64,000 nucleotides of DNA from Escherichia phage phiWec179: the sequence record LC739533.1. One strand, 5' to 3'. Position 1 is the first letter of the stretch. Each line of letters opens with the position of its first letter. This document shows positions 22,936 through 37,525 of this stretch, piece by piece. The notes beneath the pieces were generated by a model. It did not search any database and was not told the origin of the DNA. It saw only the letters and a program-made list of their open reading frames with translations. The translations under genes and the position numbers were made by a program.

Positions 22936-22954
22936 GCCTTTTTCTAAATTATTT

Positions 22955-23239: not shown

Positions 23240-23258
23240 GATTTGATCCTCAAACGGG

Positions 23259-23496: not shown

Positions 23497-23516
23497 AATA
23501 TTTACCTTTTTGTATG

Positions 23517-23578: not shown

Positions 23579-23584
23579 CCACTT

Positions 23585-23770
23585 TTAAAGATATTTTATA
23601 CTGATAACATTTTCCGGTTTAACCTGGTTGTGATAAGCATCAATGTAAATCAAACCATCGTTAGAAACGCCCAGGATCACGCCTTGCGCAATAAAACCGT
23701 ATCGGTCGCGGTAACGTGCCGCCACTTTGTTCGCTGCGTTGTAGGCTGTTTTAATCTCGTTTAAGGTCAT
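23585..23770 (-). CDS. hypothetical protein
   Basis: 61 aa. Confidence 0.45.
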   Translation of the reverse strand: MTLNEIKTAYNAANKVAARYRDRYGFIAQGVILGVSNDGLIYIDAYHNQVKPENVISIKYL

Positions 23771-23797
23771 GTGCTGTTATCCTCTCGTTAGATATAA

Positions 23798-23828
23798 GAA
23801 AGGGCGCTATTTGCGCCCTTGATTTGTT
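23798..23828 (-). terminator. intergenic hairpin (terminator/attenuator-like)
   Basis: AAGGGCGCtatttGCGCCCTT, same motif family as 17023 and 17588. Confidence 0.4.
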
Positions 23829-23975
23829 TTAGTCTTCCAGGTCCATCCATGCACGTTTCTCGGTGCGGTCGCGCTTAGTTTTGTTGCGCTTGTCGCCCTT
23901 GCGGATCACTTCTTCATTCCACGCTGCGCGTGTTTTAGAAGATTGGATTTTTTCGGCGCGATTAGATGTATTCAT
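23829..23975 (-). CDS. small basic protein (48 aa)
   Basis: GAGGAAACATC + ATG after cassette; MNTSNRAEKIQSSKTRAAW...; below ORF-track cutoff. Confidence 0.35.
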   Translation of the reverse strand: MNTSNRAEKIQSSKTRAAWNEEVIRKGDKRNKTKRDRTEKRAWMDLED

Positions 23976-23995
23976 GATGTTTCCTCTTTTTAGTT

Positions 23996-24056
23996 GTGAG
24001 CGGCACCATTGCCGCCCTACGTGTTTTAATTTACTTTATTGTTTGATGCCTGTCAA
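23996..24056 (-). promoter_or_regulatory. promoter + 5'UTR stem-loop cassette (PeSL-like)
   Basis: TTGACA-N17-TAAATT + hairpin GCGGCAATGGTGCCGC. Confidence 0.55.
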
Positions 24057-24073
24057 CTACTTTTAAAAACTTT

Positions 24074-24427
24074 TTATTCGTGGGAAAGTGTAAGGATCAC
24101 ACCTGCAATATATAACCAATAGTTTTCCCTTTCTTTCTGGATCTTGTTTTCGCTACTACGCTCGTTAATGTACCCCCAGGATGTTAACAACCGATCTACT
24201 TCCCAATACTCGAAAGCTATATTAATATTTGACGGTAAACCTTGTAACCATGATGCTATTGCTCTGATAATGTTATGATCGTAACGTTTTTGATTATCGG
24301 TGTACCAATATTCAGATTTAAAACAGCGCATCAATTCCGCGATCTTCTCTTTCTCTTCTGTGATGCCATACTCGCTATAATCAATTGAGGCCAGAATATA
24401 AAGTTTAATTGCATTTTGTGCTTTCAT
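24074..24427 (-). CDS. hypothetical protein
   Basis: 117 aa; cassette upstream. Confidence 0.5.
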   Translation of the reverse strand: MKAQNAIKLYILASIDYSEYGITEEKEKIAELMRCFKSEYWYTDNQKRYDHNIIRAIASWLQGLPSNINIAFEYWEVDRLLTSWGYINERSSENKIQKERENYWLYIAGVILTLSHE

Positions 24428-24444
24428 GGTGTCTCTCTTCTGTT

Positions 24445-24504
24445 GTGAGCGGCACCATTGCCGCCCTATGTGTTACATCTTACCGGATTTTTAAAACTTG
24501 TCAA
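24445..24504 (-). promoter_or_regulatory. promoter + 5'UTR stem-loop cassette (PeSL-like)
   Basis: TTGACA-N17-TAAGAT GTAACACATAGG + hairpin GCGGCAATGGTGCCGC. Confidence 0.6.
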
Positions 24505-24726
24505 TCATTTTTCTACTATCATTTGATAACCTGTTTCAAGGTTAGTAAACACCGTGATCCCGTCCTGGCGTTCACTCATAAGCAAGCAAGGCGCTAACAT
24601 CCTTCCTACTTCCTTGCACTCGTTATAAGCGGCGGTAATGTCTCCCGCTGCTTTGTCTTCTGTGGTGAATGTATCGTTTACGTAAACTTTACCAGCGACA
24701 ACGGCGACAATAGCAAAAGTGATCAT
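24505..24726 (-). CDS. hypothetical protein
   Basis: GAGGAAAACATC + ATG at 24726 (MITFAIVAV). Confidence 0.45.
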   Translation of the reverse strand: MITFAIVAVVAGKVYVNDTFTTEDKAAGDITAAYNECKEVGRMLAPCLLMSERQDGITVFTNLETGYQMIVEK

Positions 24727-24804
24727 GATGTTTTCCTCTTTGTGTTTTTCGTTTTGATTAGTTGATAATACAGCAATTCGCAGATTAGTCTTTAGCAATT
24801 CATG

Positions 24805-25023
24805 CTATTTACTCACAACAGTATCGAAAACAAATTTTTCTTTGTTGTCGAAGCTAACATATCCGATTCGACCACGCAAGCCGCCAGTAGTGCCGTATTC
24901 GTAACCATCAAGGCCTTTAACCTTCCAATCCGTACCCATTAAAACCGCATTATATTTCTGACCAACTACAAACGCGCCACCAGTTGATTCAATGCAAACA
25001 ACTTTAATTTTACGGATTGCCAT
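24805..25023 (-). CDS. hypothetical protein
   Basis: 72 aa. Confidence 0.45.
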   Translation of the reverse strand: MAIRKIKVVCIESTGGAFVVGQKYNAVLMGTDWKVKGLDGYEYGTTGGLRGRIGYVSFDNKEKFVFDTVVSK

Positions 25024-25101
25024 TTTCTTTCTCTCTTTGTGGTGATTGGTTTCTCTTCTCTATAGCGCCCATTATAAGGCGCTATAACGAAAAGTCAACG
25101 A

Positions 25102-25269
25102 TTATTTTTTACGGCTTAAGGTGCCCAAGTTATCAGCGTGACGCAGACCAGGGAAGATCCAAGCGCCGGATTCATCTTTTACAGGTGCCTTAACACTTGC
25201 GCCCAGGTTGGCGGCGTTAACTTTACGTGCTACGTTGCGAGCGGCTTCACGGGTAGTAAAAGTAATCAT
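25102..25269 (-). CDS. small protein (55 aa)
   Basis: GAGGAAAACATC + ATG (MITFTTREAARNV...), same initiation module as 24505..24726; below ORF-track cutoff. Confidence 0.35.
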   Translation of the reverse strand: MITFTTREAARNVARKVNAANLGASVKAPVKDESGAWIFPGLRHADNLGTLSRKK

Positions 25270-25293
25270 GATGTTTTCCTCTTCTCTTTGTTA

Positions 25294-25355
25294 GGCGGTG
25301 GACCATTCCGCCGCCTTGATGTAATACAGTTTACTCTATTTTTATTTCTTTGCAA
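25294..25355 (-). promoter_or_regulatory. promoter + 5'UTR stem-loop cassette (PeSL-like)
   Basis: TTGCAA-N17-TAAACT GTATTACATCAAGG + hairpin CGGCGGAATGGTCCACCGCC. Confidence 0.55.
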
Positions 25356-25500
25356 CTACTTTTATATTTTCTTTCTTTGCCTCTTCCACCTGGTCCGCCC
25401 ACTGCTTACCCCACGTTTGAGCGTTATAGTGATATTGACAAAGAGCAACACCACGTTTTAAACCAGCGATAGACTTTTTACCACATTGACAAGTTTTCAT
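25345..25500 (-). CDS. small Cys-containing protein (51 aa, tentative)
   Basis: ATG at 25500 (MKTCQCGKKS...); weak SD; 3' end overlaps cassette. Confidence 0.25.
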
Positions 25501-25511
25501 TTTGTGATCCC

Positions 25512-25724
25512 TTAGTTGATGATAGTCAGTGTAAAATTATAATCACCATTCTTATATAACACCATATTACCGAAGGTGCCGACTCGACGCATATCCATAC
25601 GGATACCTATAACATCTTTAACGTCTTTAATGTTTTTAACGCCCGTGATATCTTTATTAAAATATTCCTCGTCTGAAAATAAAACTTGACTTGCATTTTT
25701 TAACAGTGTGCGGATATTAGCCAT
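25512..25724 (-). CDS. hypothetical protein
   Basis: 70 aa; cassette upstream. Confidence 0.45.
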   Translation of the reverse strand: MANIRTLLKNASQVLFSDEEYFNKDITGVKNIKDVKDVIGIRMDMRRVGTFGNMVLYKNGDYNFTLTIIN

Positions 25725-25745
25725 CGTGATAATCTCTCTTCTGTT

Positions 25746-25805
25746 GTGAGCGGCACCATTGCCGCCCTACGTAATACAGTTTACTCTTTTTCTTTCCGGT
25801 GTCAA
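25746..25805 (-). promoter_or_regulatory. promoter + 5'UTR stem-loop cassette (PeSL-like)
   Basis: TTGACA-N17-TAAACT GTATTACGTAGG + hairpin GCGGCAATGGTGCCGC. Confidence 0.6.
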
Positions 25806-25813
25806 CAATCTTT

Positions 25814-26041
25814 TTAGATTAATTCGTCCAGGCATAACAGGCGATCAACGTTGAGATCGGTCAGGCTGATGGTTGGCACCTGATAAGATTCGATGTACTC
25901 GACGCTTGCATATTCCCCAAAGTTAGCAATAGCCCACTTATTCAAGATCTCACATACATCATTAATCTTTTTGTTTGTTACAACTGCAATAACCTGGGAA
26001 GTGCCAACGGTGCCGGATACGCGAACAATATTGATAGCCAT
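25814..26041 (-). CDS. hypothetical protein
   Basis: 75 aa; cassette upstream. Confidence 0.45.
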   Translation of the reverse strand: MAINIVRVSGTVGTSQVIAVVTNKKINDVCEILNKWAIANFGEYASVEYIESYQVPTISLTDLNVDRLLCLDELI

Positions 26042-26061
26042 GATTTTTCTCTCTTCTGTTA

Positions 26062-26119
26062 GGCGGGGCGCTTGTCGCCCCTATGTGATACATCTTACAC
26101 TAATTTAAAACTTTGTCAA
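26062..26119 (-). promoter_or_regulatory. promoter + 5'UTR stem-loop cassette (PeSL-like)
   Basis: TTGACA-N17-TAAGAT GTATCACATAGG + hairpin GGCGACAAGCGCCCCGCC. Confidence 0.6.
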
Positions 26120-26214
26120 ATTATTTTCTATTTCTTCCGTAATAGCCCAATTTATGATCTAAGCTAAAACGTTTTGTGAGATAGGTCGAACGATGTTTCA
26201 TTTTTATGTCTCCT

Positions 26215-26454
26215 TTACATTCCAACCATAGCGGCGCGGATCGCGGTAGTGCTATACTTGAAACCGTCTGGAGTTTTATCTTGTCCAGTCTGTTCCAGAA
26301 AGAGCATCATATCACGCGCCGCATCGTTACGGTTAGAATTATAACTAATAAATTCTTTCGCGGTGCGGTATAATGATTCATCGTTATTAATCCAAAGGCT
26401 TACATTCCAATGAGTTTTGTTTTTGTGACCTAAGAACATTTTTGATTTAGCCAT
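26215..26454 (-). CDS. hypothetical protein
   Basis: 79 aa; cassette upstream. Confidence 0.45.
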   Translation of the reverse strand: MAKSKMFLGHKNKTHWNVSLWINNDESLYRTAKEFISYNSNRNDAARDMMLFLEQTGQDKTPDGFKYSTTAIRAAMVGM

Positions 26455-26475
26455 GATGTTAATCTCTTTTTCAGT

Positions 26476-26537
26476 GAGGCGGGAACTATTCCCGCGCCCT
26501 ATGTAATACAGTTTACTCTTTTTATTCGTGCTGTCAA
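26476..26537 (-). promoter_or_regulatory. promoter + 5'UTR stem-loop cassette (PeSL-like)
   Basis: TTGACA-N17-TAAACT GTATTACATAGG + hairpin CGGGAATAGTTCCCGCC. Confidence 0.55.
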
Positions 26538-26543
26538 TGCTTT

Positions 26544-26897
26544 TTATAAATCTTTTTTACGTTTTACATCGCTTGCATGACTGTATACAGCGATCCCATT
26601 ATCACGACAAAAACGGGTAAGGTATGATCCGCGTGAAAACTCTTTCCCTTCCAGGTCAACAACCTTGCTAAATTCTTCCAGGGCAACGGTATCAAAATGA
26701 TCACCATAACCATATTGAAACGGCACGTTAACAACTTCAATCAATTTACCGCCGATCTCAACGTCCACGCTTAAAGAAAAATATGTGTTACCGTAGGACT
26801 GTTGAAACCAGCGACGGGCGCTAATGTGAACGGCTTCAATCTCACCAATTTTAAATTGAGTGTTACCCAGGATCGCAACGTTGATATTTTTAGCCAT
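26544..26897 (-). CDS. hypothetical protein
   Basis: 117 aa; cassette upstream. Confidence 0.5.
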   Translation of the reverse strand: MAKNINVAILGNTQFKIGEIEAVHISARRWFQQSYGNTYFSLSVDVEIGGKLIEVVNVPFQYGYGDHFDTVALEEFSKVVDLEGKEFSRGSYLTRFCRDNGIAVYSHASDVKRKKDL

Positions 26898-26920
26898 GAT
26901 TTTTTCTCTCTTTTTGGTTA

Positions 26921-26974
26921 GTGGGAAGTGTTCCCGATAAAAGTTATTATGCTTATACTATCGTTTTTTGTCAA
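26921..26974 (-). promoter_or_regulatory. promoter + 5'UTR stem-loop cassette (divergent)
   Basis: TTGACA-N18-ATAATA + hairpin GGGAACACTTCCC. Confidence 0.45.
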
Positions 26975-26993
26975 TAGTATAAGACTAAAACTT

Positions 26994-27173
26994 TTAACGA
27001 TAATCATCGTAGGCTTTATTAACCTGGCGAATATAACATTCGAAAGCGAGATCAATAGAATCATATTCCCGCACATAATCCCCGTAAGAAACTACATACA
27101 CACCTTTTTGATCCTCAAACGTCATGATGATAGAATCCAGGCCGATGATTTCAGTTTTAGCGATGATAGTCAT
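26994..27173 (-). CDS. small protein (59 aa)
   Basis: ATG at 27173 after cassette (MTIIAKTEIIGLD...); below ORF-track cutoff. Confidence 0.35.
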   Translation of the reverse strand: MTIIAKTEIIGLDSIIMTFEDQKGVYVVSYGDYVREYDSIDLAFECYIRQVNKAYDDYR

Positions 27174-27194
27174 AATAATAACCTTTTTATTGTT

Positions 27195-27251
27195 GGCGGC
27201 ACCATTGCCGCCCTACGTGATAAACTATACCAGAATTTTAAACAGTGTCAA
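27195..27251 (-). promoter_or_regulatory. promoter + 5'UTR stem-loop cassette (PeSL-like)
   Basis: TTGACA-N17-TATAGT TTATCACGTAGG + hairpin GGCGGCAATGGTGCCGCC. Confidence 0.6.
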
Positions 27252-27261
27252 ACGTTTTTTC

Positions 27262-27507
27262 TTAGTTTGCGAAATATGGCGCGGCGGCTGATGCCGTTAA
27301 TCTCCAAGTGATTTGGCTATCGATCAAGTATTCTTCATTCTTGATCCGCACGGTATCAATCGAGAAGTTACTGAAAGGCTTGCTCTTGATTTTACGAACA
27401 ACCGTTACACGACGGTTATTTTTCATCTCTTTTAACTGAATCCAGGCGTAACCTTTTTCATTGACAAATATTTCATTGTGATTGGTGATAGATGATAAGT
27501 GTTTCAT
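27262..27507 (-). CDS. hypothetical protein
   Basis: 81 aa; cassette upstream. Confidence 0.45.
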   Translation of the reverse strand: MKHLSSITNHNEIFVNEKGYAWIQLKEMKNNRRVTVVRKIKSKPFSNFSIDTVRIKNEEYLIDSQITWRLTASAAAPYFAN

Positions 27508-27528
27508 GATTTTTCTCTCTTCTGTTTT

Positions 27529-27590
27529 GAGCGGTGGACCATTCCGCCGCCCTATGTGTTACATCTTACTACTTTTTTAAACATTGTCAA
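27529..27590 (-). promoter_or_regulatory. promoter + 5'UTR stem-loop cassette (PeSL-like)
   Basis: TTGACA-N17-TAAGAT GTAACACATAGG + hairpin GGCGGCGGAATGGTCCACCGC. Confidence 0.6.
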
Positions 27591-27598
27591 GGATATTT

Positions 27599-27880
27599 TT
27601 AACTATATGATCCACATCGTTCGCAGTAGTGATCATCGTCGTCATCTGCTACCTGGCTGATAAAATGATCTACCTTTGCTTTCAAATTATTATAATTGCT
27701 TTCTACTTCCTGTAGTCGTCGTTGGTAGTATTCCAGGGCTTGCACATAGGCCATTTGTTCGGTTTTAGCTTGCATAGCTAAATTCATGCCACGCGTTTCA
27801 TCGTATAACCAATAACCATCATTACATTCACTAATAGATAGTGTAGGGCTTAGTTTTTCGTGACGGATAACCTTGCTCAT
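27599..27880 (-). CDS. hypothetical protein
   Basis: 93 aa; C-terminal CERCGS. Confidence 0.45.
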   Translation of the reverse strand: MSKVIRHEKLSPTLSISECNDGYWLYDETRGMNLAMQAKTEQMAYVQALEYYQRRLQEVESNYNNLKAKVDHFISQVADDDDDHYCERCGSYS

Positions 27881-27890
27881 AGTGTGCCCC

Positions 27891-28001
27891 TTACTTCAAA
27901 ATGATTGTTGTGATAACTGCTACGGTGATCCAGAATGGAACAACTAAGATAATAGCGTTAATCGTTCCAACTGTCAAACTATTTTCTTTCTTGATCATCA
28001 T
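27891..28001 (-). CDS. small membrane peptide (36 aa)
   Basis: AAGGAAAAC + ATGATG; hydrophobic GTINAIILVVPFWITVAVITTIILK. Confidence 0.35.
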   Translation of the reverse strand: MMIKKENSLTVGTINAIILVVPFWITVAVITTIILK

Positions 28002-28008
28002 GTTTTCC

Positions 28009-28092
28009 TTACAGTGTCCAAAGAATGATTTCAAGTGCAGCACGGAAACCAGGAATAAAATTGATTGCAAAAAACAGGGAAGTAGTAAACAT
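28009..28092 (-). CDS. tiny hydrophobic peptide (27 aa, tentative)
   Basis: AAAGGA + ATG right after cassette; MFTTSLFFAINFIPGFRAALEIILWTL. Confidence 0.25.
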   Translation of the reverse strand: MFTTSLFFAINFIPGFRAALEIILWTL

Positions 28093-28110
28093 TTTTCTAT
28101 CCTTTCAGTT

Positions 28111-28170
28111 GTGAGCGGCACCATTGCCGCCTGATGAGTTAACTATAAGGGATCACGTTTTACCTGTCAA
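28111..28170 (-). promoter_or_regulatory. promoter + 5'UTR stem-loop cassette (PeSL-like)
   Basis: TTGACA-N17-TATAGT TAACTCATCAGG + hairpin CGGCAATGGTGCCG. Confidence 0.55.
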
Positions 28171-28724
28171 CCTAAATCATCAAAATAAAGATAATTTTTT
28201 TCGGCTTCTTTCTTCTCTTCCTGTGATGCCTCAAAGACTGGGAGAAAGTGATCAAAGGCGACGCACTCAACCGCTTGATCGTCTTCCTCTTCCTGGTCTT
28301 CCTCCTGGGCTATGGCTGCAATTTTGGCTAATTTCCTTTCAGCCTGGATCAGCTTACCATCTAAAACGCTTTTAGCGGTGCTGTACGCCGTCCAAGTGAT
28401 GCGCTTACTTTCCAGCGCGGCATCAAGCGCCGCTATCTTGCTGGGGTATTCATCCAGGACACGAAAAGCCGGATCTACCTTGTACAGCGGATTATCTTTC
28501 GCGCCGTCGCTATCATCTGCGGCGCTTGCAATGTCAGCGTTACCATTCGCCAGCCAACCAGGGCGATCGCTGCGTGTTTTGGTATTCCCATGACTACGCG
28601 CCGATCTGTTGCCTACTTGCTCGCCACTATAGCCAGGAGCATGATCGATCATGTCGTCCGGTATAATGCGCGGATCATTAACGTCATGTTTTACCCAGGA
28701 CTGGATCACATATTCGCGCCCCAT
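28167..28724 (-). CDS. hypothetical acidic protein
   Basis: 185 aa; higher GC than neighbours; EEDQEEEDDQ tract. Confidence 0.5.
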   Translation of the reverse strand: MGREYVIQSWVKHDVNDPRIIPDDMIDHAPGYSGEQVGNRSARSHGNTKTRSDRPGWLANGNADIASAADDSDGAKDNPLYKVDPAFRVLDEYPSKIAALDAALESKRITWTAYSTAKSVLDGKLIQAERKLAKIAAIAQEEDQEEEDDQAVECVAFDHFLPVFEASQEEKKEAEKNYLYFDDLG

Positions 28725-28984
28725 TATACACCCCTTTTAACAATCATTTCACACACAAGAAATAAGCTGGCGGAATCACGGCAAGGATAGAAAGATGTAC
28801 GATAATCTCTCACCCCTGCTTTTATGATCTCCGTGGTTTTACCTGATAGCACATTGTAAATAGTGTAACTTGTCGGACTGTTTTTATATACCTTGCCAGG
28901 GTAGATCATAACATAACGAGCAAGGTTATAAAATTCCTCGTTACGAAAGGCTATGATCTTCCCGCATACCTTAAGAAAGTGCAC
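28724..28984 (-). CDS. hypothetical protein
   Basis: 86 aa. Confidence 0.45.
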   Translation of the reverse strand: MHFLKVCGKIIAFRNEEFYNLARYVMIYPGKVYKNSPTSYTIYNVLSGKTTEIIKAGVRDYRTSFYPCRDSASLFLVCEMIVKRGV

Positions 28985-28994
28985 GTTAGCCCCC

Positions 28995-29267
28995 TTACAG
29001 CAAAAAGTTTACTTGTCTTGCTGTTAATGTAGTATCAACCATTTTCGGGCTTTTATAATTGACAAAACGCGCGGTTTTTTCAATAGCGAAGCCGAGATAA
29101 TCTTGTTTGTTGAAATTACATTCTTTCTTAAATGTTTCCCGTGCAATGGCGATCGCTGCGTCCAGGGATAAACGCCCGTCAATATTGATATTTGCGAAAG
29201 ATCCGCCACCGCTCATAGGTTTACCAGTGGTGCCCGTTACGATCATTGTTGCGCTATATGATGCCAT
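28995..29267 (-). CDS. hypothetical protein
   Basis: AGAGATTATCATC + ATG at 29267 (MASYSATMIV). Confidence 0.45.
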   Translation of the reverse strand: MASYSATMIVTGTTGKPMSGGGSFANINIDGRLSLDAAIAIARETFKKECNFNKQDYLGFAIEKTARFVNYKSPKMVDTTLTARQVNFLL

Positions 29268-29287
29268 GATGATAATCTCTCTTAGTT

Positions 29288-29351
29288 GTGAGCGGTGGAC
29301 CATTCCGCCGCTCTACGTGATACATCTTATCAGGTTGTTGCCTGTTGTCAA
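29288..29351 (-). promoter_or_regulatory. promoter + 5'UTR stem-loop cassette (PeSL-like)
   Basis: TTGACA-N17-TAAGAT GTATCACGTAGAG + hairpin CGGCGGAATGGTCCACCGC. Confidence 0.6.
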
Positions 29352-29357
29352 TACTTT

Positions 29358-29555
29358 TTATTCAAGCCCTACGATATGTAAGACACGGCGATTAGCAATA
29401 GCGTGCTGGTCTTCTGTTATAACGCCCATTTCTACCAGTGAATCAAGAAAGGAAAGCACCGTGATATATTCGTCATCGGGTACACTCATTTCATTAGTAC
29501 CGTTTACCACTACGTTGATTTGTCCTGCTTTCGCTACAATGTGCAATGTTGCCAT
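29358..29555 (-). CDS. hypothetical protein
   Basis: 65 aa; long GC-rich leader upstream. Confidence 0.45.
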   Translation of the reverse strand: MATLHIVAKAGQINVVVNGTNEMSVPDDEYITVLSFLDSLVEMGVITEDQHAIANRRVLHIVGLE

Positions 29556-29829
29556 GATCTTAACTCCAGGTGATGAATGATGTTTTTTGTTGGTTGACGG
29601 TGGATTATGGAGATCCTCACCTTTGCCCGTCCTGCATTGCGCCCTCCTGTTGTTTATTGTCGTTGTGCCTCGCCCCCCTCGACAAGATTAATACTACGCT
29701 ACCAGGTGCGGAACGTCAACGACTTTTTCAATCTTTTTTATTTTCTTTTTGCTTGCTATATATAAAGGAAAGGGCTATCATCTTTCTACCGCGCCAACCA
29801 GGGCGCACAACAGAAGAAAGGGCGACACC

Positions 29830-30096
29830 ATGACAACTACTACATTACACCTTATGCACTCGTTAGGCTGGCAAGGCGGCACGGTCCACCAGGTAGCAAG
29901 CGCAACGGGCTTAAAGGTTGAAACAGTTCTCAACCTGGGCGATCATAAAGTGGAAGAGATAGACCATTTTGATCCGTTCGCTGATGGTTATCTCTGGGCT
30001 TGCAGTGGCGGCGGGGAAAGCAAGATACCGCCAGCCGCGCGGGGCGATATGCATTTTTGGTTAGGTGTTCTCTCCTGGCAAGAAAACAAAAAATAA
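29830..30096 (+). CDS. hypothetical protein in GC-rich island (tentative)
   Basis: ATG at 29830 (MTTTTLHLMHSLGWQGG...); only plus-strand ORF between two minus-strand arrays; overlapping ORFs in other frames. Confidence 0.3.
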   Translation: MTTTTLHLMHSLGWQGGTVHQVASATGLKVETVLNLGDHKVEEIDHFDPFADGYLWACSGGGESKIPPAARGDMHFWLGVLSWQENKK

Positions 30097-30098
30097 TC

Positions 30099-30127
30099 TT
30101 GACAAGCCCAGGGATCGGGCTTATACT
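30099..30127 (+). promoter_or_regulatory. sigma70-like promoter before a GC-rich structured segment
   Basis: TTGACA-N17-TATACT, then about 110 nt GC-rich sequence with no convincing ORF. Confidence 0.4.
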
Positions 30128-30351
30128 GTTTTACATACAGAAGAGGAAGCGCCACCCCACGGCGTAAAGGCGGGGCTAACATACCAGGGGCACTGGTTGG
30201 AAGGTCGATCGCCGGGAGGCTGGGCGCTATATATTTGTAAAGAAATGTAAAGATAAAATAATCGCTTGCTTTCCTGGCTGGATCTGTTATTCTTATTACA
30301 TGGCGAGGGGACACGGGAGCGCGAGACAATCACCGGACCTGCCCGTCATTC

Positions 30352-30465
30352 TGCAAATGAGAAAAATTCTCATTTGCAAATAAGACTCATTCGCATTTAA
30401 TAATTGAATGAGAATCATTCTCATTCTCATTCGTATTTCGATTTTAAGTGAGAATAATTCTCATT
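30352..30465. promoter_or_regulatory. three operator-like palindromes sharing half-site AATGAGAA
   Basis: TGCAAATGAGAAaaaTTCTCATTTGCA (30352-30378, perfect 12-3-12); AATGAGAATcATTCTCATT (30407-30425); TGAGAATaATTCTCA (about 30449-30463). Confidence 0.5.
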
Positions 30466-30476
30466 TCGGTAATTTT

Positions 30477-30680
30477 CACGTAAACTTTAGAATTTGCTTT
30501 TCAACTTTCACTTTTGTAAAAGCAAAAAAACTTTAAATACCTGGTGCGCGCGACTTTTTAAAAAATTTTTCTCGGTTTTTTGCTTTGAAATCTGGCCCAC
30601 CAATTTGAGATAGTGTACGTAAACTTTAGAATTTGGTTTTGGATTCTCACTTTTGTAAACTCGTAAAAAGTTTAAATAAT
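30477..30680. repeat. imperfect ~64-bp direct repeat (two copies)
   Basis: ACGTAAACTTTAGAATTTG..CACTTTTGTAAA..TTTAAATA at 30477-30539 and 30616-30680. Confidence 0.5.
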
Positions 30681-30805
30681 TGTAGGGATTTTGAGATAGT
30701 TTGCTTGTAAGGTTTGAGATAATCCTTCCCGAAGATGTTACGCAGCCTACAGCCTACCTGAATGCTCGTCTAACGAGATTAACTCTAAAAGATGAGTGTT
30801 GGTGT

Positions 30806-30846
30806 AGCTAAAGAGAAAAGGCTCTCTACGGTGTTGTAGGAGCCTT
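30806..30846 (-). terminator. rho-independent-like terminator after NADAR gene
   Basis: minus strand hairpin AAGGCTC..GAGCCTT followed by TTCTCTTT, about 70 nt past stop of 30917..31444. Confidence 0.4.
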
Positions 30847-30916
30847 ATTTCTGTGGCACAAAGTTGACGTATTCTTTTTAAAAACGAATTTTTTCAAAAT
30901 ATCACGAATATCGCCT

Positions 30917-31444
30917 TTATGGTATTTTGGCTGGGAACAGGATTTTAATCAGATTGTTGTGGTATTGTCCTAAAAGATTCTGCCCTTTCCAGTTGGCAGG
31001 ATTAAGCACCCCTGGTTCGTACATACCCATTCCAATTCCGTAAACCTTATCATAAGGACTCGCCTCAACGAACGTTTTGAATTGGTACAGTCGCAAGTCA
31101 GAATAAAGATCAGGGTTCTGTGTATACTTCAAGCATAAGCCTCGCATTACGATACGCTCTCGGTACTCTTCCCACATGTCATTATTAAAACCAGACACCG
31201 CTCGACCCATGCGCTTGTAGTATGCCTGTCCCTTCTCGTCGTCACGCTTCATTGAGTGATCAAGGATAGCTGCTGCGATTACCTGATCCTTGAACAGCAA
31301 AGCCTTACGCCACATCATGTATTGCTCTACACAACAGAAAGTTTCATTGTACCCTGGTTCCGTCTCTGTGAATGGTGCAATGTACCAATTGCTAAACACA
31401 TCTTTATGTGAAAAGAAGAATACATATTCATTAGTTATTCGCAT
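30917..31444 (-). CDS. NADAR (YbiA-like) family protein
   Basis: FFFSHKDVFSNW...ETFCCVEQYMMWRKALLFKD...MWEEYRERIVMRGL..KYTQNPDL...FVEASPYDKVYGIGMG...NWKGQNLLGQ matches NADAR signature. Confidence 0.8.
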   Translation of the reverse strand: MRITNEYVFFFSHKDVFSNWYIAPFTETEPGYNETFCCVEQYMMWRKALLFKDQVIAAAILDHSMKRDDEKGQAYYKRMGRAVSGFNNDMWEEYRERIVMRGLCLKYTQNPDLYSDLRLYQFKTFVEASPYDKVYGIGMGMYEPGVLNPANWKGQNLLGQYHNNLIKILFPAKIP

Positions 31445-31619
31445 TTTTCATGCCTCTTAAGACTTCAGCTTGCCCGTCTTGAAAAGCTTTCATCAGAACT
31501 ATCTTAAGATTGACTTCCAAGCGTTCTTCATCCTCTTTATAACAATCCAACACTGCCTTAAGTTCATCATAGTGGTTCAGAATAGGTTTAAAGATTTCAT
31601 GATCTGCTAAACGTGCCAT
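31431..31619 (-). CDS. hypothetical protein
   Basis: AAAGGAGAAACT + ATG at 31619 (MARLADHEIF). Confidence 0.4.
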   Translation of the reverse strand: MARLADHEIFKPILNHYDELKAVLDCYKEDEERLEVNLKIVLMKAFQDGQAEVLRGMKNANN

Positions 31620-31632
31620 AGTTTCTCCTTTG

Positions 31633-31998
31633 TTAGTCCATCCACCAGTAGCCATAAACTGCGTCTGCGTCGATGAGTTTGTGTTTGTTGTTCCGCATGT
31701 AGTCTAAGATAAGTAGACGTTTATTGTATCTGGAGAGATTATGACCCTCTTTTCCGCCATAGTCAAAATATTTTGCAAGACTTTTACACTCAAACAAAAT
31801 CAGTTCGGGAGTTTCTTCACATTGGTCTGTCTGGTACACTTGACGGATGATCATGTATACGTCATCGTCTTCCGCTAAGTGCTCTACTGGTCCACACCCA
31901 GCAGGAATAAATTCATAGTCCCATCGAATCAGATGTTTCTCTACTGCTTCAAAGAAATCCATTTTTTCGCTACGCATGATCTGAACATCAATTAACAT
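31633..31998 (-). CDS. hypothetical protein
   Basis: 121 aa. Confidence 0.5.
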   Translation of the reverse strand: MLIDVQIMRSEKMDFFEAVEKHLIRWDYEFIPAGCGPVEHLAEDDDVYMIIRQVYQTDQCEETPELILFECKSLAKYFDYGGKEGHNLSRYNKRLLILDYMRNNKHKLIDADAVYGYWWMD

Positions 31999-33004
31999 AA
32001 TTTTCCTCCTGTCTCATTATTCCACCTGCTTGGTTGATAGCACTTAAGACAACAGCCAAATCCTCACGCAGGAAGGTTTCACTATGACCGTCTTTCATGT
32101 GCAACGCTTCCACACAGCCGATAGACGGTAGGATCTGATCAGTCTTAGATTTTAGCTTACTCTCTAACGCCCTGCAAGCCTGGTAGGACGGCAGATCAAA
32201 CAATGCTACACGTTGCATAAAGTAGTTATTATTTGCATTCTGAATCTTCAAACGTATATCACTATCCTTTGCAATCCCCAGCTTGAAAGCTCCCGTATCT
32301 TCTCCATACTCATCAAGGATAACGTTGATGTAAAATTCTTGCTGTGATCTGCCTTTACATTCAGAACAACCATTCCCACTTAGATACTTATTAGGTGTTA
32401 TCGTTTGTTCTCCGTGCTCACTACATAAATATTTAAACTTAGACATGGTTCCCACCTTACCAACGAACCCTATAAACTGGTCCCCTCGTTCCTGGCAAGC
32501 TTCAGTCATACGGAAAATCCATTGCGCAGGAGTGTAACGATGGTTTTTAGAACAACGGCAAGCAAGCAGCCCATCTCTAAGACTGCTCCTCGTTACTTCA
32601 AACCTACCGTTACACACGCCAGCCTTTACATATTCGTCATGAGAACATACGGAACACTTAACTATCCAATAAGCCGCCCATCCTTTACTATCTAATCTAT
32701 CACTACGATAATACTCACGCGGAACGTTATCAGGACACGCTTTGTTAAAGGTTGTGATATGGATTGAATCATCAATTAAACATGTTTGCCTTATTGCTTC
32801 CACCCTACAACCTTTACAACCACTTCCTATTTTAGCATTATCTATAGAAGTTGTTCTCCATTCCCCATGTATAGAACATTCACAGGTTAGTTTAGTGCGT
32901 GCCCCCTTCCATTCACCATGCCACCCCGTAATGGTCCACGGTTTATCCTGGTAAGCTTGTTCTATTTCTTCCTGATATTCCTCCCAACTTTTAGCCCTCA
33001 TCAT
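31988..33004 (-). CDS. zinc-ribbon repeat + T5orf172 (GIY-YIG-like) domain protein, homing-endonuclease-like
   Basis: repeated C..C...G.GC..C zinc-ribbon units; C-terminal FKLGIAKDSDIRLK...HMKDGHSETF; paralog of 36572..37525. Confidence 0.5.
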   Translation of the reverse strand: MMRAKSWEEYQEEIEQAYQDKPWTITGWHGEWKGARTKLTCECSIHGEWRTTSIDNAKIGSGCKGCRVEAIRQTCLIDDSIHITTFNKACPDNVPREYYRSDRLDSKGWAAYWIVKCSVCSHDEYVKAGVCNGRFEVTRSSLRDGLLACRCSKNHRYTPAQWIFRMTEACQERGDQFIGFVGKVGTMSKFKYLCSEHGEQTITPNKYLSGNGCSECKGRSQQEFYINVILDEYGEDTGAFKLGIAKDSDIRLKIQNANNNYFMQRVALFDLPSYQACRALESKLKSKTDQILPSIGCVEALHMKDGHSETFLREDLAVVLSAINQAGGIMRQEENYVN

Positions 33005-33041
33005 CCCCCCTACAACAAATGCCCCTTGCGGGGCATCTTTA

Positions 33042-34181
33042 TTAGAACACGCTACTTAAGGTTGCAGATCGTGTAGTGGTTGGTTCCAGAACCACACGGA
33101 ACGTATCCCCAGGTTTATCGCTCACTACTACAATCTTACCACCTTCGATCAGGTCACACTTCAAACCTTCGGCAGTAGCTTTCAGGTCGATGCGTGGATC
33201 GCCATCATCATCCAGGATAACGTAGCTGCTATCTTCGAGAGGCTCCAGTTCTTCGTCTTTCACGGCTTCCAGGTAGATGTTCAGTTCACATGCACCAGAC
33301 AAGAACTTGGTAGGAGTGAACTCATGCCAGTTGTTGACCCAGTTAGGCTTGATAGCTTTACCGTTGACAACAATAGAGCTAATCGTCCAGCGTGCATCGT
33401 TACCCAGAGAGATACCCATCATCTCCAGACAGGTCTTGAACGTCATTTTCGGATAGAAGTTTAACTCTTCTACGATCCCTTGAATAACATCGAAAGACAG
33501 TTCAGTGCTAACATCCCACAAACGTTGGAAGCTTTCAACATGTTTGCGATTCTTCAGATTCTTGTCCAGGTAGTCCAGCATAGTTTCAATAGACAGTTTG
33601 TCGTAGTTGAAGCTATAGAAGATACGGCTCGGACGGTTGACGAAGTATTCCGAGATGTATCCGCTGTTCTTTGTCAGCATGAACAGTTTGTTACCGCTAC
33701 CTGTGCCATCCAGCAGAGTCAGCAGTGCTTCCTGATCTTCCTTCTTGGAATACACTTTGTCGAACTCATCGAACAGTACTACTGCGCGTTCAGAGATCTT
33801 ACTCATGAACTCCAGGAAATTGGCATCAGAATATGGCTGCGTTACCAGAATAGTTGGGATTCCCAGGTCTTCCGCTTCCAACAGAGTGTTACTGATCAGT
33901 TTTGCCAGCATTGTCTTGCCACTGCCTTTTGTACCCGACAACAGGACACCTGTGTTCTTACCTTCTTTACTACGACGAGCGAAGGTACGGATAACGTGGG
34001 CTGCACGTTCTTTGGTTTCCCCGTACAGGCGATCAGGAATCGTGAACTTATCAGCGCGACTAAGAGAATAGTTACCATGTGGATCACAATTGACAGTCCA
34101 AACGCCAGCGGGGAGTTTATCAACCTCTACACCAAAATCTTTATTAACAATTGCAACATCCCCATAAACTGTGTATTTCAT
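33042..34181 (-). CDS. P-loop NTPase (AAA+-like ATPase)
   Basis: Walker A GTKGSGKT, Walker B VVLFDEFD; 379 aa. Confidence 0.6.
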   Translation of the reverse strand: MKYTVYGDVAIVNKDFGVEVDKLPAGVWTVNCDPHGNYSLSRADKFTIPDRLYGETKERAAHVIRTFARRSKEGKNTGVLLSGTKGSGKTMLAKLISNTLLEAEDLGIPTILVTQPYSDANFLEFMSKISERAVVLFDEFDKVYSKKEDQEALLTLLDGTGSGNKLFMLTKNSGYISEYFVNRPSRIFYSFNYDKLSIETMLDYLDKNLKNRKHVESFQRLWDVSTELSFDVIQGIVEELNFYPKMTFKTCLEMMGISLGNDARWTISSIVVNGKAIKPNWVNNWHEFTPTKFLSGACELNIYLEAVKDEELEPLEDSSYVILDDDGDPRIDLKATAEGLKCDLIEGGKIVVVSDKPGDTFRVVLEPTTTRSATLSSVF

Positions 34182-34249
34182 TTACTTTCTCCTCTTCTGT
34201 TGGAATAGACGTATTATCTCTTGTCTAATACGTCTTGTCAATACTTGTT

Positions 34250-34609
34250 TTAGATCCCTTCGCCTTTAGTGATGATAGCTTCCATCACCACAGCTTTCTT
34301 CTTACGTTGAACATCTTGACGGATCAGGAGGCTACCACCTTGATCATCCTTATACTGCTTCATGATGATGAAGTTGTTGCCACACACAGCGCCGATAGCC
34401 ACGTATGGGCGATTAGAATTATCCACATCCGCAGATGGGGTTACATCCGTGCAAGTAAAGAACTTGCCATCAGGATCAGTATAAGCAAAGTGGCCTTTAG
34501 CAGTTACTGCAACTTCTCCGGTGCTTGTGGACTGTGCAGCCACAAACGGTGCAGCAGATGCTACGAAACTTGCAGACAGCAGGGCTACAGCTAAAATAAT
34601 CTTTTTCAT
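34250..34609 (-). CDS. secreted protein
   Basis: signal-peptide-like MKKIILAVALLSASFVASA. Confidence 0.5.
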   Translation of the reverse strand: MKKIILAVALLSASFVASAAPFVAAQSTSTGEVAVTAKGHFAYTDPDGKFFTCTDVTPSADVDNSNRPYVAIGAVCGNNFIIMKQYKDDQGGSLLIRQDVQRKKKAVVMEAIITKGEGI

Positions 34610-34619
34610 GGTGATCTCC

Positions 34620-34781
34620 TCTTATTCCAACAACATACACAATGCAGCTACAACCAAGAACAGAGTAGCCACGCTTAAAGCGATAAACATTCCTAATTGA
34701 GAATGAAATTCGCCTATGATAGGTGCAGACAACGCACTTAGCAAACAACCTGTCAAACTTGCTTTGATAATAAGATCTAAC
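34620..34781 (-). CDS. small membrane protein (53 aa)
   Basis: AGGAGG + ATG; two hydrophobic segments; below ORF-track cutoff. Confidence 0.35.
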
Positions 34782-34791
34782 ATATTACCTC

Positions 34792-35043
34792 CTACAATTC
34801 CACAATAGTTTTATCTAAGTGGTGTGCCTCAACTTGAGATAAGGTTAGCACTTCAACCAAACCTCTGTCAATACCTAATTTGATCACTTGCAAATAATCA
34901 CCGAAAAGATCAGAGATTTCAATCTGGTGTTCAGTAACCACCACGACCTCGTTACCCTTGGTATACTCTCTCCAGATTCGTCCACACTTATAAATGAAAT
35001 CTTTCTGGTCTTCACTGATCATCTTAGGCTTAACGCTTAACAT
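34792..35043 (-). CDS. hypothetical protein
   Basis: 83 aa. Confidence 0.45.
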   Translation of the reverse strand: MLSVKPKMISEDQKDFIYKCGRIWREYTKGNEVVVVTEHQIEISDLFGDYLQVIKLGIDRGLVEVLTLSQVEAHHLDKTIVEL

Positions 35044-35411
35044 TACATACTCCCGTAGTCTGGTTCAATATGGTGTTTACGACAAATAGCATCCCAACGT
35101 TCACTACCGAAACCCCGTCCGTGTAGTGCATCGTATGCGAAATGTTCTGCCAACCACAATACTACACCATCTGGTTCAGTGTCAAGCGGAATTCGAAATT
35201 CTCGATCATAACGCATACGGAGAACAAACTCATTACCGTCTTCCAGGAGATGCATGTGACTTTTCGCTCGTGATGCCAAGTCAAAGAAAGGTGCCTCGTC
35301 TTTCCAAACCTGGCGCTCAACCTCAATACCGTGATCAACTACCAGGGTAGCAATCACATCTTTCATTTCTTTACTAAACATATTCCCTCCTAATAATGTT
35401 TTAAAGTCCAC
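35043..35411 (-). CDS. hypothetical protein
   Basis: 122 aa. Confidence 0.5.
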   Translation of the reverse strand: MDFKTLLGGNMFSKEMKDVIATLVVDHGIEVERQVWKDEAPFFDLASRAKSHMHLLEDGNEFVLRMRYDREFRIPLDTEPDGVVLWLAEHFAYDALHGRGFGSERWDAICRKHHIEPDYGSM

Positions 35412-35635
35412 TCAATACCTGACGGGTAACTGCCTCGACAAATCTTACCATCGGAATGCCAGTTAATGCTATCAGGGAAAGTATGATTTAGTGTTTTTTC
35501 ATGAGGAAGCCATTCTGTAGGCTTCTCTCCACCATTGATCCATACAAAACCTTCGTCTTCCAGTAAACCTAAAGCAAACTCCATCTCTTCTGCATCGTGA
35601 ACCGTTACTTTCTGACCTTTCTGTAATTTAATCAT
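35390..35635 (-). CDS. hypothetical protein
   Basis: 81 aa. Confidence 0.45.
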   Translation of the reverse strand: MIKLQKGQKVTVHDAEEMEFALGLLEDEGFVWINGGEKPTEWLPHEKTLNHTFPDSINWHSDGKICRGSYPSGIEWTLKHY

Positions 35636-35644
35636 ATTACCCCC

Positions 35645-35830
35645 TTAACCAATTAGTTGGACTGCCTTGCAGATGTAAATCCAAACAGGACTAAGCATAA
35701 GTGCTACAATACTGGGGTAAATCCCTTTTGGCTCTATCTCAATTATTGATAAGATTAAGGTGACAGCACTGATAAACATATAAGCTCCCAAGAAAGCCAG
35801 CGTCAAGAATTCAGACATAATTAGCTCCAC
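35645..35830 (-). CDS. small membrane protein
   Basis: hydrophobic FLTLAFLGAYMFISAVTLILSI. Confidence 0.4.
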   Translation of the reverse strand: MELIMSEFLTLAFLGAYMFISAVTLILSIIEIEPKGIYPSIVALMLSPVWIYICKAVQLIG

Positions 35831-36153
35831 AAGTTATGAAAATATTCAGCAAACAGGCAACGACCTTCGATTTTATCCGTTTTGGTCATAACGGATTCAG
35901 GTTTAAAACCTTCAATCATTTGATCAATAATGGATAACCACTCCACTGTAGCTTCCCGCTCCTGCTCTTCTGTTAGTTTACGGTAATCTGACACATATTT
36001 AGCCCAAATCTTAGATGGGATAAGGATATCCCCTCGTTCCACAATACGTGCCTTGAACGCGTACAGTCCAGCACAGATAATCGCGGAGAACGTATCATCC
36101 AGGTCTTGCAGATCTTCTACGCCAAATTGTAATTCATCATGGATAATTTTCAT
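35821..36153 (-). CDS. hypothetical protein
   Basis: 110 aa. Confidence 0.5.
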   Translation of the reverse strand: MKIIHDELQFGVEDLQDLDDTFSAIICAGLYAFKARIVERGDILIPSKIWAKYVSDYRKLTEEQEREATVEWLSIIDQMIEGFKPESVMTKTDKIEGRCLFAEYFHNLWS

Positions 36154-36437
36154 TTTGTTTCTCCCCGCTCTGCGTCTAATTTCAATAAGAAGGCTGCATA
36201 CTCTTCCGAACCTTTGTGTAAGAACATACGATAAGAACTCACCAGTTTCTTCGTTGTTGTATAACGCTCCATTCCGCCGACAACCCCTGTACCGAGAGTG
36301 TAGAGAACAACACCTTCAACCCCAACATGGGTTACGACTTCAACCATGTCCGTGTTATCCCAGTGATATTTAGGGGATACAATAAGATCGCCAACTGCTA
36401 ATTTGATGTTTGCCGCTTCGTCTTGTGAATAGTACAT
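36150..36437 (-). CDS. hypothetical protein
   Basis: GAGAGGAGAACAAA + ATG; first gene of leftward unit. Confidence 0.5.
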   Translation of the reverse strand: MYYSQDEAANIKLAVGDLIVSPKYHWDNTDMVEVVTHVGVEGVVLYTLGTGVVGGMERYTTTKKLVSSYRMFLHKGSEEYAAFLLKLDAERGETK

Positions 36438-36482
36438 TTTGTTCTCCTCTCACATTAGGACACGTTTTGTGTCGATGGGTGT

Positions 36483-36511
36483 AGATTACGTGAGCACAAA
36501 GGGGTTGTCAA
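36483..36511 (-). promoter_or_regulatory. sigma70-like promoter (leftward)
   Basis: minus strand TTGACA-N17-TAATCT, back-to-back with rightward promoter. Confidence 0.45.
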
Positions 36512-36516
36512 CTACT

Positions 36517-36545
36517 TATTGACAAAAATTTCTAAACGTTGTAAA
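36517..36545 (+). promoter_or_regulatory. sigma70-like promoter (rightward)
   Basis: TTGACA-N17-TAAATT, 27 nt before AAGGAGG + ATG of 36572. Confidence 0.5.
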
Positions 36546-36571
36546 TTAAAAACATCTACAAAGGAGGAAAC

Positions 36572-37525
36572 ATGAAATACGAAGATTTTAAACAAATAGT
36601 TAAAGACGATGTGGTATTTGAGAACTTACAGGAAGGTTGTGAAGTCTTAGGTTGGACAGAAAGAGATAGAAACTTTGCAAAAATATACGTAATACGTTGT
36701 AGTGTTTGTGCCAAAGACCCCGAAATGTATGGAGATGGTCTTTTTACAGCTACAAAAGGGCGTTTAGTGAAAGGTCAGAAATGTTGCGCGTGCGCTGTAT
36801 CCTTTAAATACAGTCAAAACCAACACCTAATTCTGCTAAACAGGCATTTAAGTGTCGCAGGGTACAGCATAGTTTCTATTGGTGCTTGGGAGTGTTCTAA
36901 GACGAGAATAGAGTTTAGTTGTGAGAATGGACACACGAAGAACAGAACCCTGGCTCAAGCAAAGGTAGTAGAACCTTGTAAACAGTGTCTTGAAGAAGGC
37001 TGTACAAAACACAAACAAGATGAGGCAGAGGCAAAAATTATGAAGATAATAGAAGATAAATGTTTACCTTATGTATTTGTAGGGTGGGATACTTCTTACA
37101 AGAATGTAACTTCAAAATTCAACCTCATCTGTTCGGATCACGGTTTAAAAACAATAAGATACGCTTGTTTCCTAAATGGTCATTTTTGTAACGAGTGTTC
37201 TGGTAGAAATTGCCTAAGTCTTTATTTATTAGGAGTTTATGATAGAGACTTGTTGGTAGGTTTAAAATTTGGCATCTCTCAGAGTCCAGTAAGAAGGGTT
37301 CAACAGTTAAATAAAAGGAACTTATTTAAATGTAAAATACTACAGATTTGGACTTTTACATCACATGATCAAGCTGTACGGATGGAAACATTATTAAAGA
37401 ACACATTGCGAACTGGAATATTTACTAAAAGAGAGATGAAAGATGGTCATACAGAAACCACAGAAGTTACTAATTTAGAAACCATAATGGACCTTATGAC
37501 CTCATCTCATGGATTGGTTAGTTAA
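36572..37525 (+). CDS. zinc-ribbon repeat + T5orf172 (GIY-YIG-like) domain protein, homing-endonuclease-like
   Basis: CSVCAKDP..CCAC, CKQCLEEGC, CNECSG cysteine pairs; C-terminal LKFGISQSPVRRVQQL...EMKDGHTETTEV. Confidence 0.5.
   Translation: MKYEDFKQIVKDDVVFENLQEGCEVLGWTERDRNFAKIYVIRCSVCAKDPEMYGDGLFTATKGRLVKGQKCCACAVSFKYSQNQHLILLNRHLSVAGYSIVSIGAWECSKTRIEFSCENGHTKNRTLAQAKVVEPCKQCLEEGCTKHKQDEAEAKIMKIIEDKCLPYVFVGWDTSYKNVTSKFNLICSDHGLKTIRYACFLNGHFCNECSGRNCLSLYLLGVYDRDLLVGLKFGISQSPVRRVQQLNKRNLFKCKILQIWTFTSHDQAVRMETLLKNTLRTGIFTKREMKDGHTETTEVTNLETIMDLMTSSHGLVS

Follow-up and report, generated by a model that had tools for sequence, protein, structure and literature searches.

Clustered Fur-box-like palindromes in a non-coding gap of a virulent Escherichia phage and their recurrence in other phage lineages

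What reads the palindromes packed into one large untranslated gap of Escherichia phage phiWec179, and what they do there, are the questions raised by this locus. We analyzed a stretch of 64,000 nucleotides from sequence record LC739533.1 (hereafter the window), to which all coordinates refer unless another record is named. An initial annotation, made from the letters alone, had described three palindromes within 115 bp at 30352-30465 and had read them as Fur-box-like sites for a dimeric regulator of flanking divergent early units. The three palindromes were found exactly where and as described, although the count was incomplete, as a fourth, degenerate copy at 30378-30398 and a 40-nt duplication had been overlooked. 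Judged by sequence comparison, the window is a mosaic variant close to phiWec181, a virulent ~150-kb myovirus. It was 100% identical to phiWec181 (LC739534.1) at 23700-37000 and 98.4% identical, with indels, to the left of ~22330; within the comparison range 8108-22331, the segment 21961-22331 was 75% identical to LC739534.1. The region of the array, 29700-31000, was 100% identical to phiWec181/phiWec186 (Phapecoctavirus, Stephanstirmvirinae) and 84% identical to phAPEC8 and many relatives. All four sites of the array are packed into 115 bp, as follows (scores are those of the E. coli Fur matrix described below).

30352-30378, site 1, a perfect 12-3-12 palindrome, TGCAAATGAGAAaaaTTCTCATTTGCA, with 100% complementary arms
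30355-30375, 21-mer core of site 1, AAATGAGAAAAATTCTCATTT, scoring 12.1-13.8 in two overlapping frames
30378-30398, site 2, a degenerate copy, AAATAAGACTCATTCGCATTT, 76% to site 1, scoring 13.1
30406-30445, whole part of site 3, with the 19-mer AATGAGAATCATTCTCATT at 30407-30425 and the 21-mer GAATGAGAATCATTCTCATTC at 30406-30426
30446-30466, site 4, the 21-mer AAGTGAGAATAATTCTCATTT, with the 15-mer TGAGAATAATTCTCA at 30449-30463, scoring 13.6
30386-30425 and 30426-30465, + strand, tandem duplication of 40 nt, 78% identical, carrying sites 3 and 4

Sites 1, 3, and 4 share the layout TGAGAA-N3-TTCTCA, with starts at 30358, 30409, and 30449, and sites 3 and 4 were generated by the tandem duplication. 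Site 3 is followed by a run of ATTnnn hexamers, read off the sequence as ATTCTC ATTCTC ATTCGT ATTTCG ATTTTA. The exact layout occurred three times in the 64-kb window, every time in the array, against 0.00 copies expected from 100 dinucleotide-preserving shuffles. When up to two mismatches were allowed, there were 13 matches in the window compared with 4.5 +/- 1.9 expected, and the extra two-mismatch matches revealed another group of related sites, at 15873, 16058, and 16793. The scan for further copies proposed in the initial annotation thus placed the exact pattern in the array only and looser related sites at these three positions. The two groups are close in sequence, as 30407-30437 and 15871-15901 are 90% identical over 31 nt.

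Whether the repeats act through their own folding or through a bound protein could be assessed from how their two halves vary. Herein, 53 sites were collected from 10 phages, and their consensus was AAATGAGAATCATTCTCATTT. At the variable core position, the half-site combinations were G/A in 20 sites, G/C in 17, T/C in 7, and T/A in 4, and the G/T position was complementary between half-sites in a fraction of 0.40 of the 53 sites, compared with 0.45 expected under independence. The half-sites thus vary independently and base pairing is not preserved, which argues for recognition of degenerate half-sites by a dimer, as the initial annotation had supposed, and against cruciforms or RNA stems. The spacing between sites was 17, 23, 29, or 35 bp in 20 of 30 spacings, counts that are phylogenetically non-independent, and the recurrent values suggest a modular repeat unit. 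A structural element, in which DNA cruciforms or RNA hairpins (terminators or processing sites) would act with no protein site, could account for the perfection of the inverted repeats, and a scan flagged 30405-30433 as weakly terminator-like. It is nevertheless extremely improbable, given that the halves change with no compensatory pattern (for example, TGAGAAT-G-ATTATCA in phAPEC8), that the stems are AT-rich and lack proper T tracts, and that no Rfam family matches. Rfam searches returned nothing for the whole window at gathering thresholds and only chance-level matches for 29500-31000 at permissive thresholds. A structured RNA beside the array (30134-30352) was also considered and rejected, the fold being no stabler than shuffles (z = -0.11 and +0.85 on the two strands).

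The likeness to Fur boxes was then a matter of specificity. Fur, the host ferric uptake regulator, is an iron-sensing repressor that binds DNA as an Fe2+-loaded dimer. We refined a 19-bp E. coli Fur matrix from the published consensus on 14 Fur-regulated promoter regions of K-12 (fepA-fes, fepD-entS, fepB-entC, fhuA, feoA, ryhB, fiu, cirA, tonB, exbB, fecI, sodA, fhuF, and fhuE) in 187 kb of fetched DNA. The best matches in the window were at 15874 (23.8), 30410 (19.4), and 16794 (17.4), so the second-best match of the window is site 3 (30410-30428), and each of the four array sites scored at least 13. In 200 shuffles, matches of at least 19 were expected 0.02 times and observed twice, and matches of at least 12 were expected 4.3 times and observed 22 times; six matches of at least 12 fell inside 150 nt, where the shuffle maximum was two. 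In leave-one-out scoring, the 14 real K-12 sites ranged from 6.9 to 21.7, compared with 13-19.4 for the array sites and 14.3-23.8 for the sites in the terminal region described below. By matrix score, the array sites suit E. coli Fur at least as well as validated boxes of the chromosome do. Weaker matches (14.3-16.3) were seen at 20546-20596 and 9043-9061, in intergenic promoter regions of small - strand genes; these could be chance matches in AT-rich DNA or genuine single boxes.

The reverse comparison gave the same picture. A matrix built from the four array sites only was run on the 187 kb of K-12 DNA, a sample fetched around known Fur promoters in which the labelled Fur regions make up 2.1% of the sequence, and 17 of its 25 top matches fell in those regions. 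The top match was the ryhB promoter, and fhuE, fecA, fecI, fhuF, fhuA, exbB, sodA, fepD-entS, and fepB-entC were also recovered. By our own arithmetic, eight of the ten top matches at a rate of 0.021 correspond to a binomial P of ~2e-12. A further match outside the labelled regions lay between fecR and fecA, on the upstream side of fecA, a Fur-regulated gene. In both directions, therefore, the Fur-box likeness put forward in the initial annotation proved real, and far stronger than the letters alone could have shown: a matrix trained on E. coli ranks the array sites at the top of the window, and the phage sites retrieve known Fur promoters from E. coli DNA.

The phage sites form a 19-bp inverted repeat of the 9-1-9 / 7-1-7 type, TGA(T/G)AAT-N-ATT(A/C)TCA. 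The initial annotation had pointed to G/C in place of T/A at the central position as a departure from the Fur box. Since genuine E. coli boxes often have GAGAAT/ATTCTC half-sites, this G lies within the normal range of Fur. The likeness extends to other bacteria, as the 19-mer AATGAGAATCATTCTCATT of site 3 is identical to the Fur-box consensus published for Xanthomonas campestris, AATGAgAATcATTctCATT (PMC1790865), and TGAGAATGATTCTCA boxes lie upstream of Fur-regulated iron transporters in Enterococcus faecalis (PMC6056675). The exact palindromic 19-mer was found in at least 120 bacterial contigs. Of 20 downstream genes inspected, a non-random set hand-picked by eye from 89 candidates, 18 were iron- or metal-homeostasis genes. 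These 18 comprised five of the Fur family, FeoA, two FeoB, FTR1, a TonB-dependent receptor, two ECF sigma factors, and several iron-type binding proteins. Taken as a statement about sequence, the Fur-box reading of the array is strongly supported.

To place these sites among genes and promoters, the following features of the surrounding DNA are needed.

29719-29691, - strand, sigma-70 promoter-like element for the leftward early block
29753-29781, + strand, sigma-70 promoter-like element for the 88-aa gene, forming a divergent pair with the preceding one
29830-30096, + strand, 88-aa gene with no assigned function, left of the array
30099-30127, + strand, sigma-70 promoter match (11/12), TTGACA-17-TATACT, with a hairpin in the spacer, pointing into the array and invariant in four phages
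30807-30857, hairpin terminator, closing the rightward gap and ending the convergent - strand cluster; its phAPEC8 equivalent is annotated as a terminator
31444-30917, - strand, NADAR gene, right of the array

The array is flanked by convergent genes, the 88-aa gene on the + strand and the NADAR gene on the - strand, the latter belonging to a cluster of NADAR, CapR/HNH endonuclease, and AAA ATPase genes. The control of flanking divergent early units envisaged in the initial annotation was therefore not borne out: the flanking genes converge on the array, and the divergent sigma-70 pair, in a region (29691-29781) conserved in four phages, lies ~600 bp to the left. Control of a promoter fared no better, and an operator at a promoter was rejected, since no sigma-70-like hexamer pair lies over any of the four sites on either strand. 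A replication origin was likewise rejected because there was no DnaA box near the array; no TTATCCACA-like DnaA box was found within one mismatch in 27608-34078. Host-derived DNA was ruled out as well, blastn of 30400-30470 and 29830-30352 against 5,426 E. coli genomes having given no match.

Several other elements share the gap. After the promoter at 30099-30127, a GC-rich stretch of ~220 nt, reaching to ~30350, is nearly invariant across two genera; 30099-30350 contained no convincing ORF, Rfam match, fold signal, or E. coli match. Between the array and the terminator lie two 62-nt direct repeats (30478-30539 and 30617-30678) and three copies of TTTGAGATA. The latter fall within 30604-30721, with no others in the 64 kb, and TTTGAGATA may provide further binding sites for a protein next to the Fur-like array, as a positional analogue of the DRD repeats of T5. 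A further motif, TTTGTAAA-N13-TTTAAATA(A/C), is present in three copies (30234-30262, 30514-30541, and 30652-30680), the last two within the 62-nt repeats. Its AAAAA(C/G)TTTAAATA core is kept in four phages, and the motif may be a phage-specific (late-type) promoter. A TAGAAT element in the first 62-nt repeat was discarded as a promoter, as it is not conserved in phAPEC8 or a PD06-like phage.

If the sites are read by a protein, it could come from the phage or from the host, and the distribution of the sites bears on this choice. In Phapecoctavirus and Justusliebigvirus, 29700-30350 is almost invariant, while the array sequence diverges but keeps four or five sites, and TGAGAAT and TGATAAT interchange at sites among relatives. 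A site is kept at the position of site 2 in phAPEC8, a PD06-like phage, and UAB_1. Using the NADAR protein as a route to relatives yielded only 5 loci in IMG/VR. By blastn, the 141-nt array matched 418 phage records. These included T5-like Demerecviridae, with matches at ~7.5-10 kb or in annotated terminal repeats, Justusliebigvirus, Vequintavirinae (Cronobacter PBES02 and Erwinia SNUABM_55), and the Klebsiella jumbo phage Muenster (Alcyoneusvirus), in which the matches fall in its terminal repeat and at least seven strong sites occupy 2.5 kb. In each phage inspected, the sites occupied a non-coding gap (~0.8-1.3 kb) that adjoins clusters of small genes, and when the non-coding gaps were compared between these lineages, the Fur-like box was all that they had in common. 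None of the T5 terminal-repeat (pre-early) proteins has a homologue in the window. That phages with a common host, but without detectable early genes in common, carry one motif suggests a factor supplied by the host.

The sites might instead be operators for a dimeric regulator that is encoded by the phage and has a Fur-like target. In its favor, the palindromes surpass host sites in perfection, conserve their AAA/TTT flanks, and prefer G, and most neighboring genes have no assigned function. We regard this as very improbable, because the motif is common to Demerecviridae, Stephanstirmvirinae, Vequintavirinae, and Alcyoneusvirus, which do not share detectable early proteins, and because it retrieves the regulon of host Fur. 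No Fur homologue is encoded in the window, and the ten neighboring proteins have no recognizable DNA-binding domain, so that the candidate phage DNA-binding proteins to which the initial annotation had looked did not emerge. Readings in which Fur binds are more likely than a dedicated phage protein or an element that works by structure alone.

The position of the array relative to the end of the DNA was deduced from relatives. Phage BME3 has a 342-bp direct terminal repeat according to PhageTerm (PMC12210895), and its record starts at window position 15819 and closes with a second copy of its first 342 bp. The records of Mt1B1_P17, WPEC1, WPEC2, WPEC4, WPEC6, Schickermooser, and BI-EHEC likewise start or end at 15819 and hold two copies each; dw-ec also has two copies of the repeat, with one match ending ~150 bp from the record end. 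The record of Salmonella phage bobsandoy was uninformative on physical ends. These record ends and duplicated copies map the terminal repeat to ~15819-16181. In the BME3 record (PP239276), we also noted at 146169-147371 that the first 788 bp are duplicated internally, that Ns precede the terminal copy, and that the repeat is annotated 73 bp off the true duplicate; these irregularities are probably an assembly artefact. The features of the terminal region are as follows.

15819-16181, physical genome end and direct terminal repeat of about 342-360 bp, placed from relatives
15870-15903, strongest Fur-like box in the window, CAATGAGAATAATTATCATTATCATTCGTATT, at +52 from the end and within the terminal repeat, scoring 23.8
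16055-16075, Fur-like box AGATGAGAATGATTATTATTC, at +237 from the end and within the terminal repeat, scoring 14.3
16790-16812, Fur-like box AGATGATAATGGTTATCATTG with canonical TGATAAT half-sites, scoring 17.4, the third-best in the window

All three boxes lie in a 1.45-kb ORF-free region (15600-17050) that is full of short repeats. The box at 15870-15903 outscored all 14 E. coli training sites and was the only part of this region to match T5, MM-1, Muenster, and PBES02. Within 16055-16075, a run of 18 bases, ATGAGAATGATTATTATT, is identical to the Fur box that overlaps the -10 region of the ryhB promoter in E. coli; the phage copy lacks a corresponding -35 element. The array itself lies outside the terminal repeat, 14.5 kb inside the genome end, or ~9.4% of 154.5 kb. 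Between the end and the array there are only small - strand genes, transcribed towards the end, with sigma-70 promoters. All eight copies of GGGCGGCAATGGTGCCGC (18775-28115) are on the - strand in this terminal early block, and as they sit just downstream of the sigma-70 promoters, they look like conserved 5'-leader hairpins. In phAPEC8, copies of GGGCGGCAATGGTGCCGC are annotated as "PHIRE promoters" but look like leader hairpins instead, and none occurs at the array.

Phages with the array probably recruit Fur for something besides ordinary iron-gene control. With moderate confidence, and from sequence alone, we favor a reading in which the array comprises four high-affinity sites for host Fur that act as an iron-sensitive boundary or roadblock and not as an operator for a phage repressor. 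Because no site overlaps a recognizable promoter, this functional consequence is one that we infer; the promoter-free position between convergent units speaks for a boundary or roadblock and against a classical operator. When the cell is replete with iron, dimers of Fur would fill the four sites and spread over the adjoining ATTnnn hexamers, and this occupancy would create a nucleoprotein block of ~115 bp. Such a roadblock would stop rightward transcripts from the promoters at 29753 and 30099 from running antisense into the convergent cluster. The array would thereby mark the edge of the left-terminal early block and would be the counterpart of palindromes E, G, and I in the injection-stop region of T5.

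Fur might also be bound to be withdrawn from the host. Replicated phage DNA, with hundreds of copies carrying roughly ten strong sites each, would titrate Fur as a decoy, and the iron-starvation regulon (iron uptake, RyhB-mediated iron sparing, NrdHIEF, and Suf) would be de-repressed, supplying iron for phage DNA synthesis. Many near-consensus, non-overlapping sites off promoters have the architecture of a sink rather than of an operator, the density of strong sites in Muenster agrees with such a role, and the terminal repeats duplicate sites. A sink, however, would work anywhere, whereas the sites recur at terminal repeats and at the inner edge of the early block, and we consider titration unlikely, though it is the most plausible of the alternatives to a boundary or roadblock.

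Bacteriophage T5 gives the position of the sites a possible meaning. In T5 (AY587007), the same motif corresponds to palindromes E, G, and I together with direct repeat C of Repeat Region 3, at about 9468-9640, and this region brackets the calculated shear point of first-step transfer, 9618, and the 7.9% nick. The array may be the functional equivalent of the T5 injection stop signal and mark a pause after the first ~10% of the genome, the host component being Fur or looping between terminal and internal Fur boxes. Two traits of the T5 type are found here: a large untranslated gap in which AAATGAGAATCATT-type palindromes and repeats are clustered, and a location at the inner edge of a terminal block of host-takeover genes, 14.5 kb from the mapped end. 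The array also bounds a block of small leftward genes that is the sole carrier of the eight leader hairpins, and Fur-like boxes lie within a few hundred bp of the end in both T5 (228-252) and this phage family (+52 and +237). Set against this, the terminal repeat is ~360 bp long, compared with 10 kb in T5, there are no paired DnaA boxes like those of the T5 region, and the sites of Muenster lie within 2.5 kb of its end, not at ~8-10% of the genome. A cytoplasmic protein on DNA that has already entered would moreover be expected to favor entry and not to block it. To our knowledge, two-step DNA transfer is not known for these myoviruses. An entry pause at the array is improbable.

A broader form of the idea would make Fur boxes near the DNA end, together with an array 8-10% in, a conserved architecture of large virulent enterobacterial phages, with Fur as the host component that defines the first-entering or first-expressed segment. 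We hold this, too, to be something of a long shot. It draws on T5-like and phAPEC8/phi92-like phages; rV5-like phages and Alcyoneusvirus carry comparable arrays, whose placement relative to the end forms no part of it. If it were true, the stop-signal palindromes of T5 would be Fur-binding sites, and early infection would be sensitive to host iron.

Fur boxes, and single boxes on cargo genes of temperate phages, are already known. Consensus Fur-box arrays that lie in structural non-coding DNA of virulent phages and accompany no iron gene appear to be undescribed in the open-access papers searched, in which nothing was found to connect the T5 palindromes or first-step transfer with Fur; Davison's analysis of T5 lists the elements without function and does not mention Fur. 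Fur is thus a concrete protein candidate for the injection-stop palindromes of T5, a question dating from the 1960s-80s. Host iron status differs sharply between laboratory broth and the gut or an infected tissue, and if Fur binds, it could modulate the early infection of cells by several groups of therapy phages. Across hundreds of deposited genomes (418 records matched), repeats that stand out in the sequence would also gain an annotation.

Compared with known systems, the array combines familiar sites with an unfamiliar setting. Chromosomal Fur boxes normally overlap promoters. Those of ryhB, fhuA, fecI, and fhuF have the same 19-bp inverted repeat as the phage, AATGA(G/T)AAT-N-ATT(C/A)TCATT. 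The E. coli consensus has T where the phage sites prefer G, and the phage sites exceed chromosomal ones in length and in perfection (21 bp, AAA/TTT flanks included). Chromosomal boxes are overlapping hexamer arrays at promoters, whereas the array consists of four separate sites 23-40 bp apart with no promoter and no iron gene; phage sites in general are spaced 17-40 bp apart, in contrast to the overlapping E. coli boxes. These departures would also fit a dedicated protein, of phage or mobile origin, with Fur-like specificity. The carrier, moreover, is a virulent phage, with further copies in its terminal repeat. Temperate lambdoid phages with sitABCD also have host Fur sites on phage DNA (PMC6969025), as here, but those are single boxes that sit on the promoters of iron-related cargo and extend the Fur regulon in the ordinary way. 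Unlike them, the present sites belong to a virulent phage, serve no cargo gene, and form arrays in structural non-coding regions.

The closest parallel is T5, although the two differ in part. In T5, the array is inside the 10.1-kb terminal repeat, whereas here it is outside the repeat of ~342-360 bp, and the paired DnaA boxes (IRD'-spacer-IRC') and nine DRD repeats that adjoin the T5 palindromes are both absent here. No homologue of A1 or A2, the T5 proteins on which two-step DNA transfer depends, was found in the 64-kb window by tblastn. Each array nevertheless occupies a large untranslated gap where a terminal early-gene block has its inner edge, at 7.8-7.9% in T5 and ~9.4% here, and T5 9576-9602, AAATGAGAATCATTATCATTTGCATTT, is nearly identical to site C of phAPEC8. 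T5 also has a canonical Fur-like box at 228-252, AACTGATAATCATTATCATCC, inside dmp and ~230 bp from the left end, with two overlapping frames at 18.1, which parallels the boxes at +237 in the window and +247 in BME3 from the DNA end. The layouts are thus comparable: a terminal Fur-like box, then, in T5, pre-early genes transcribed towards the left end, and then the array.
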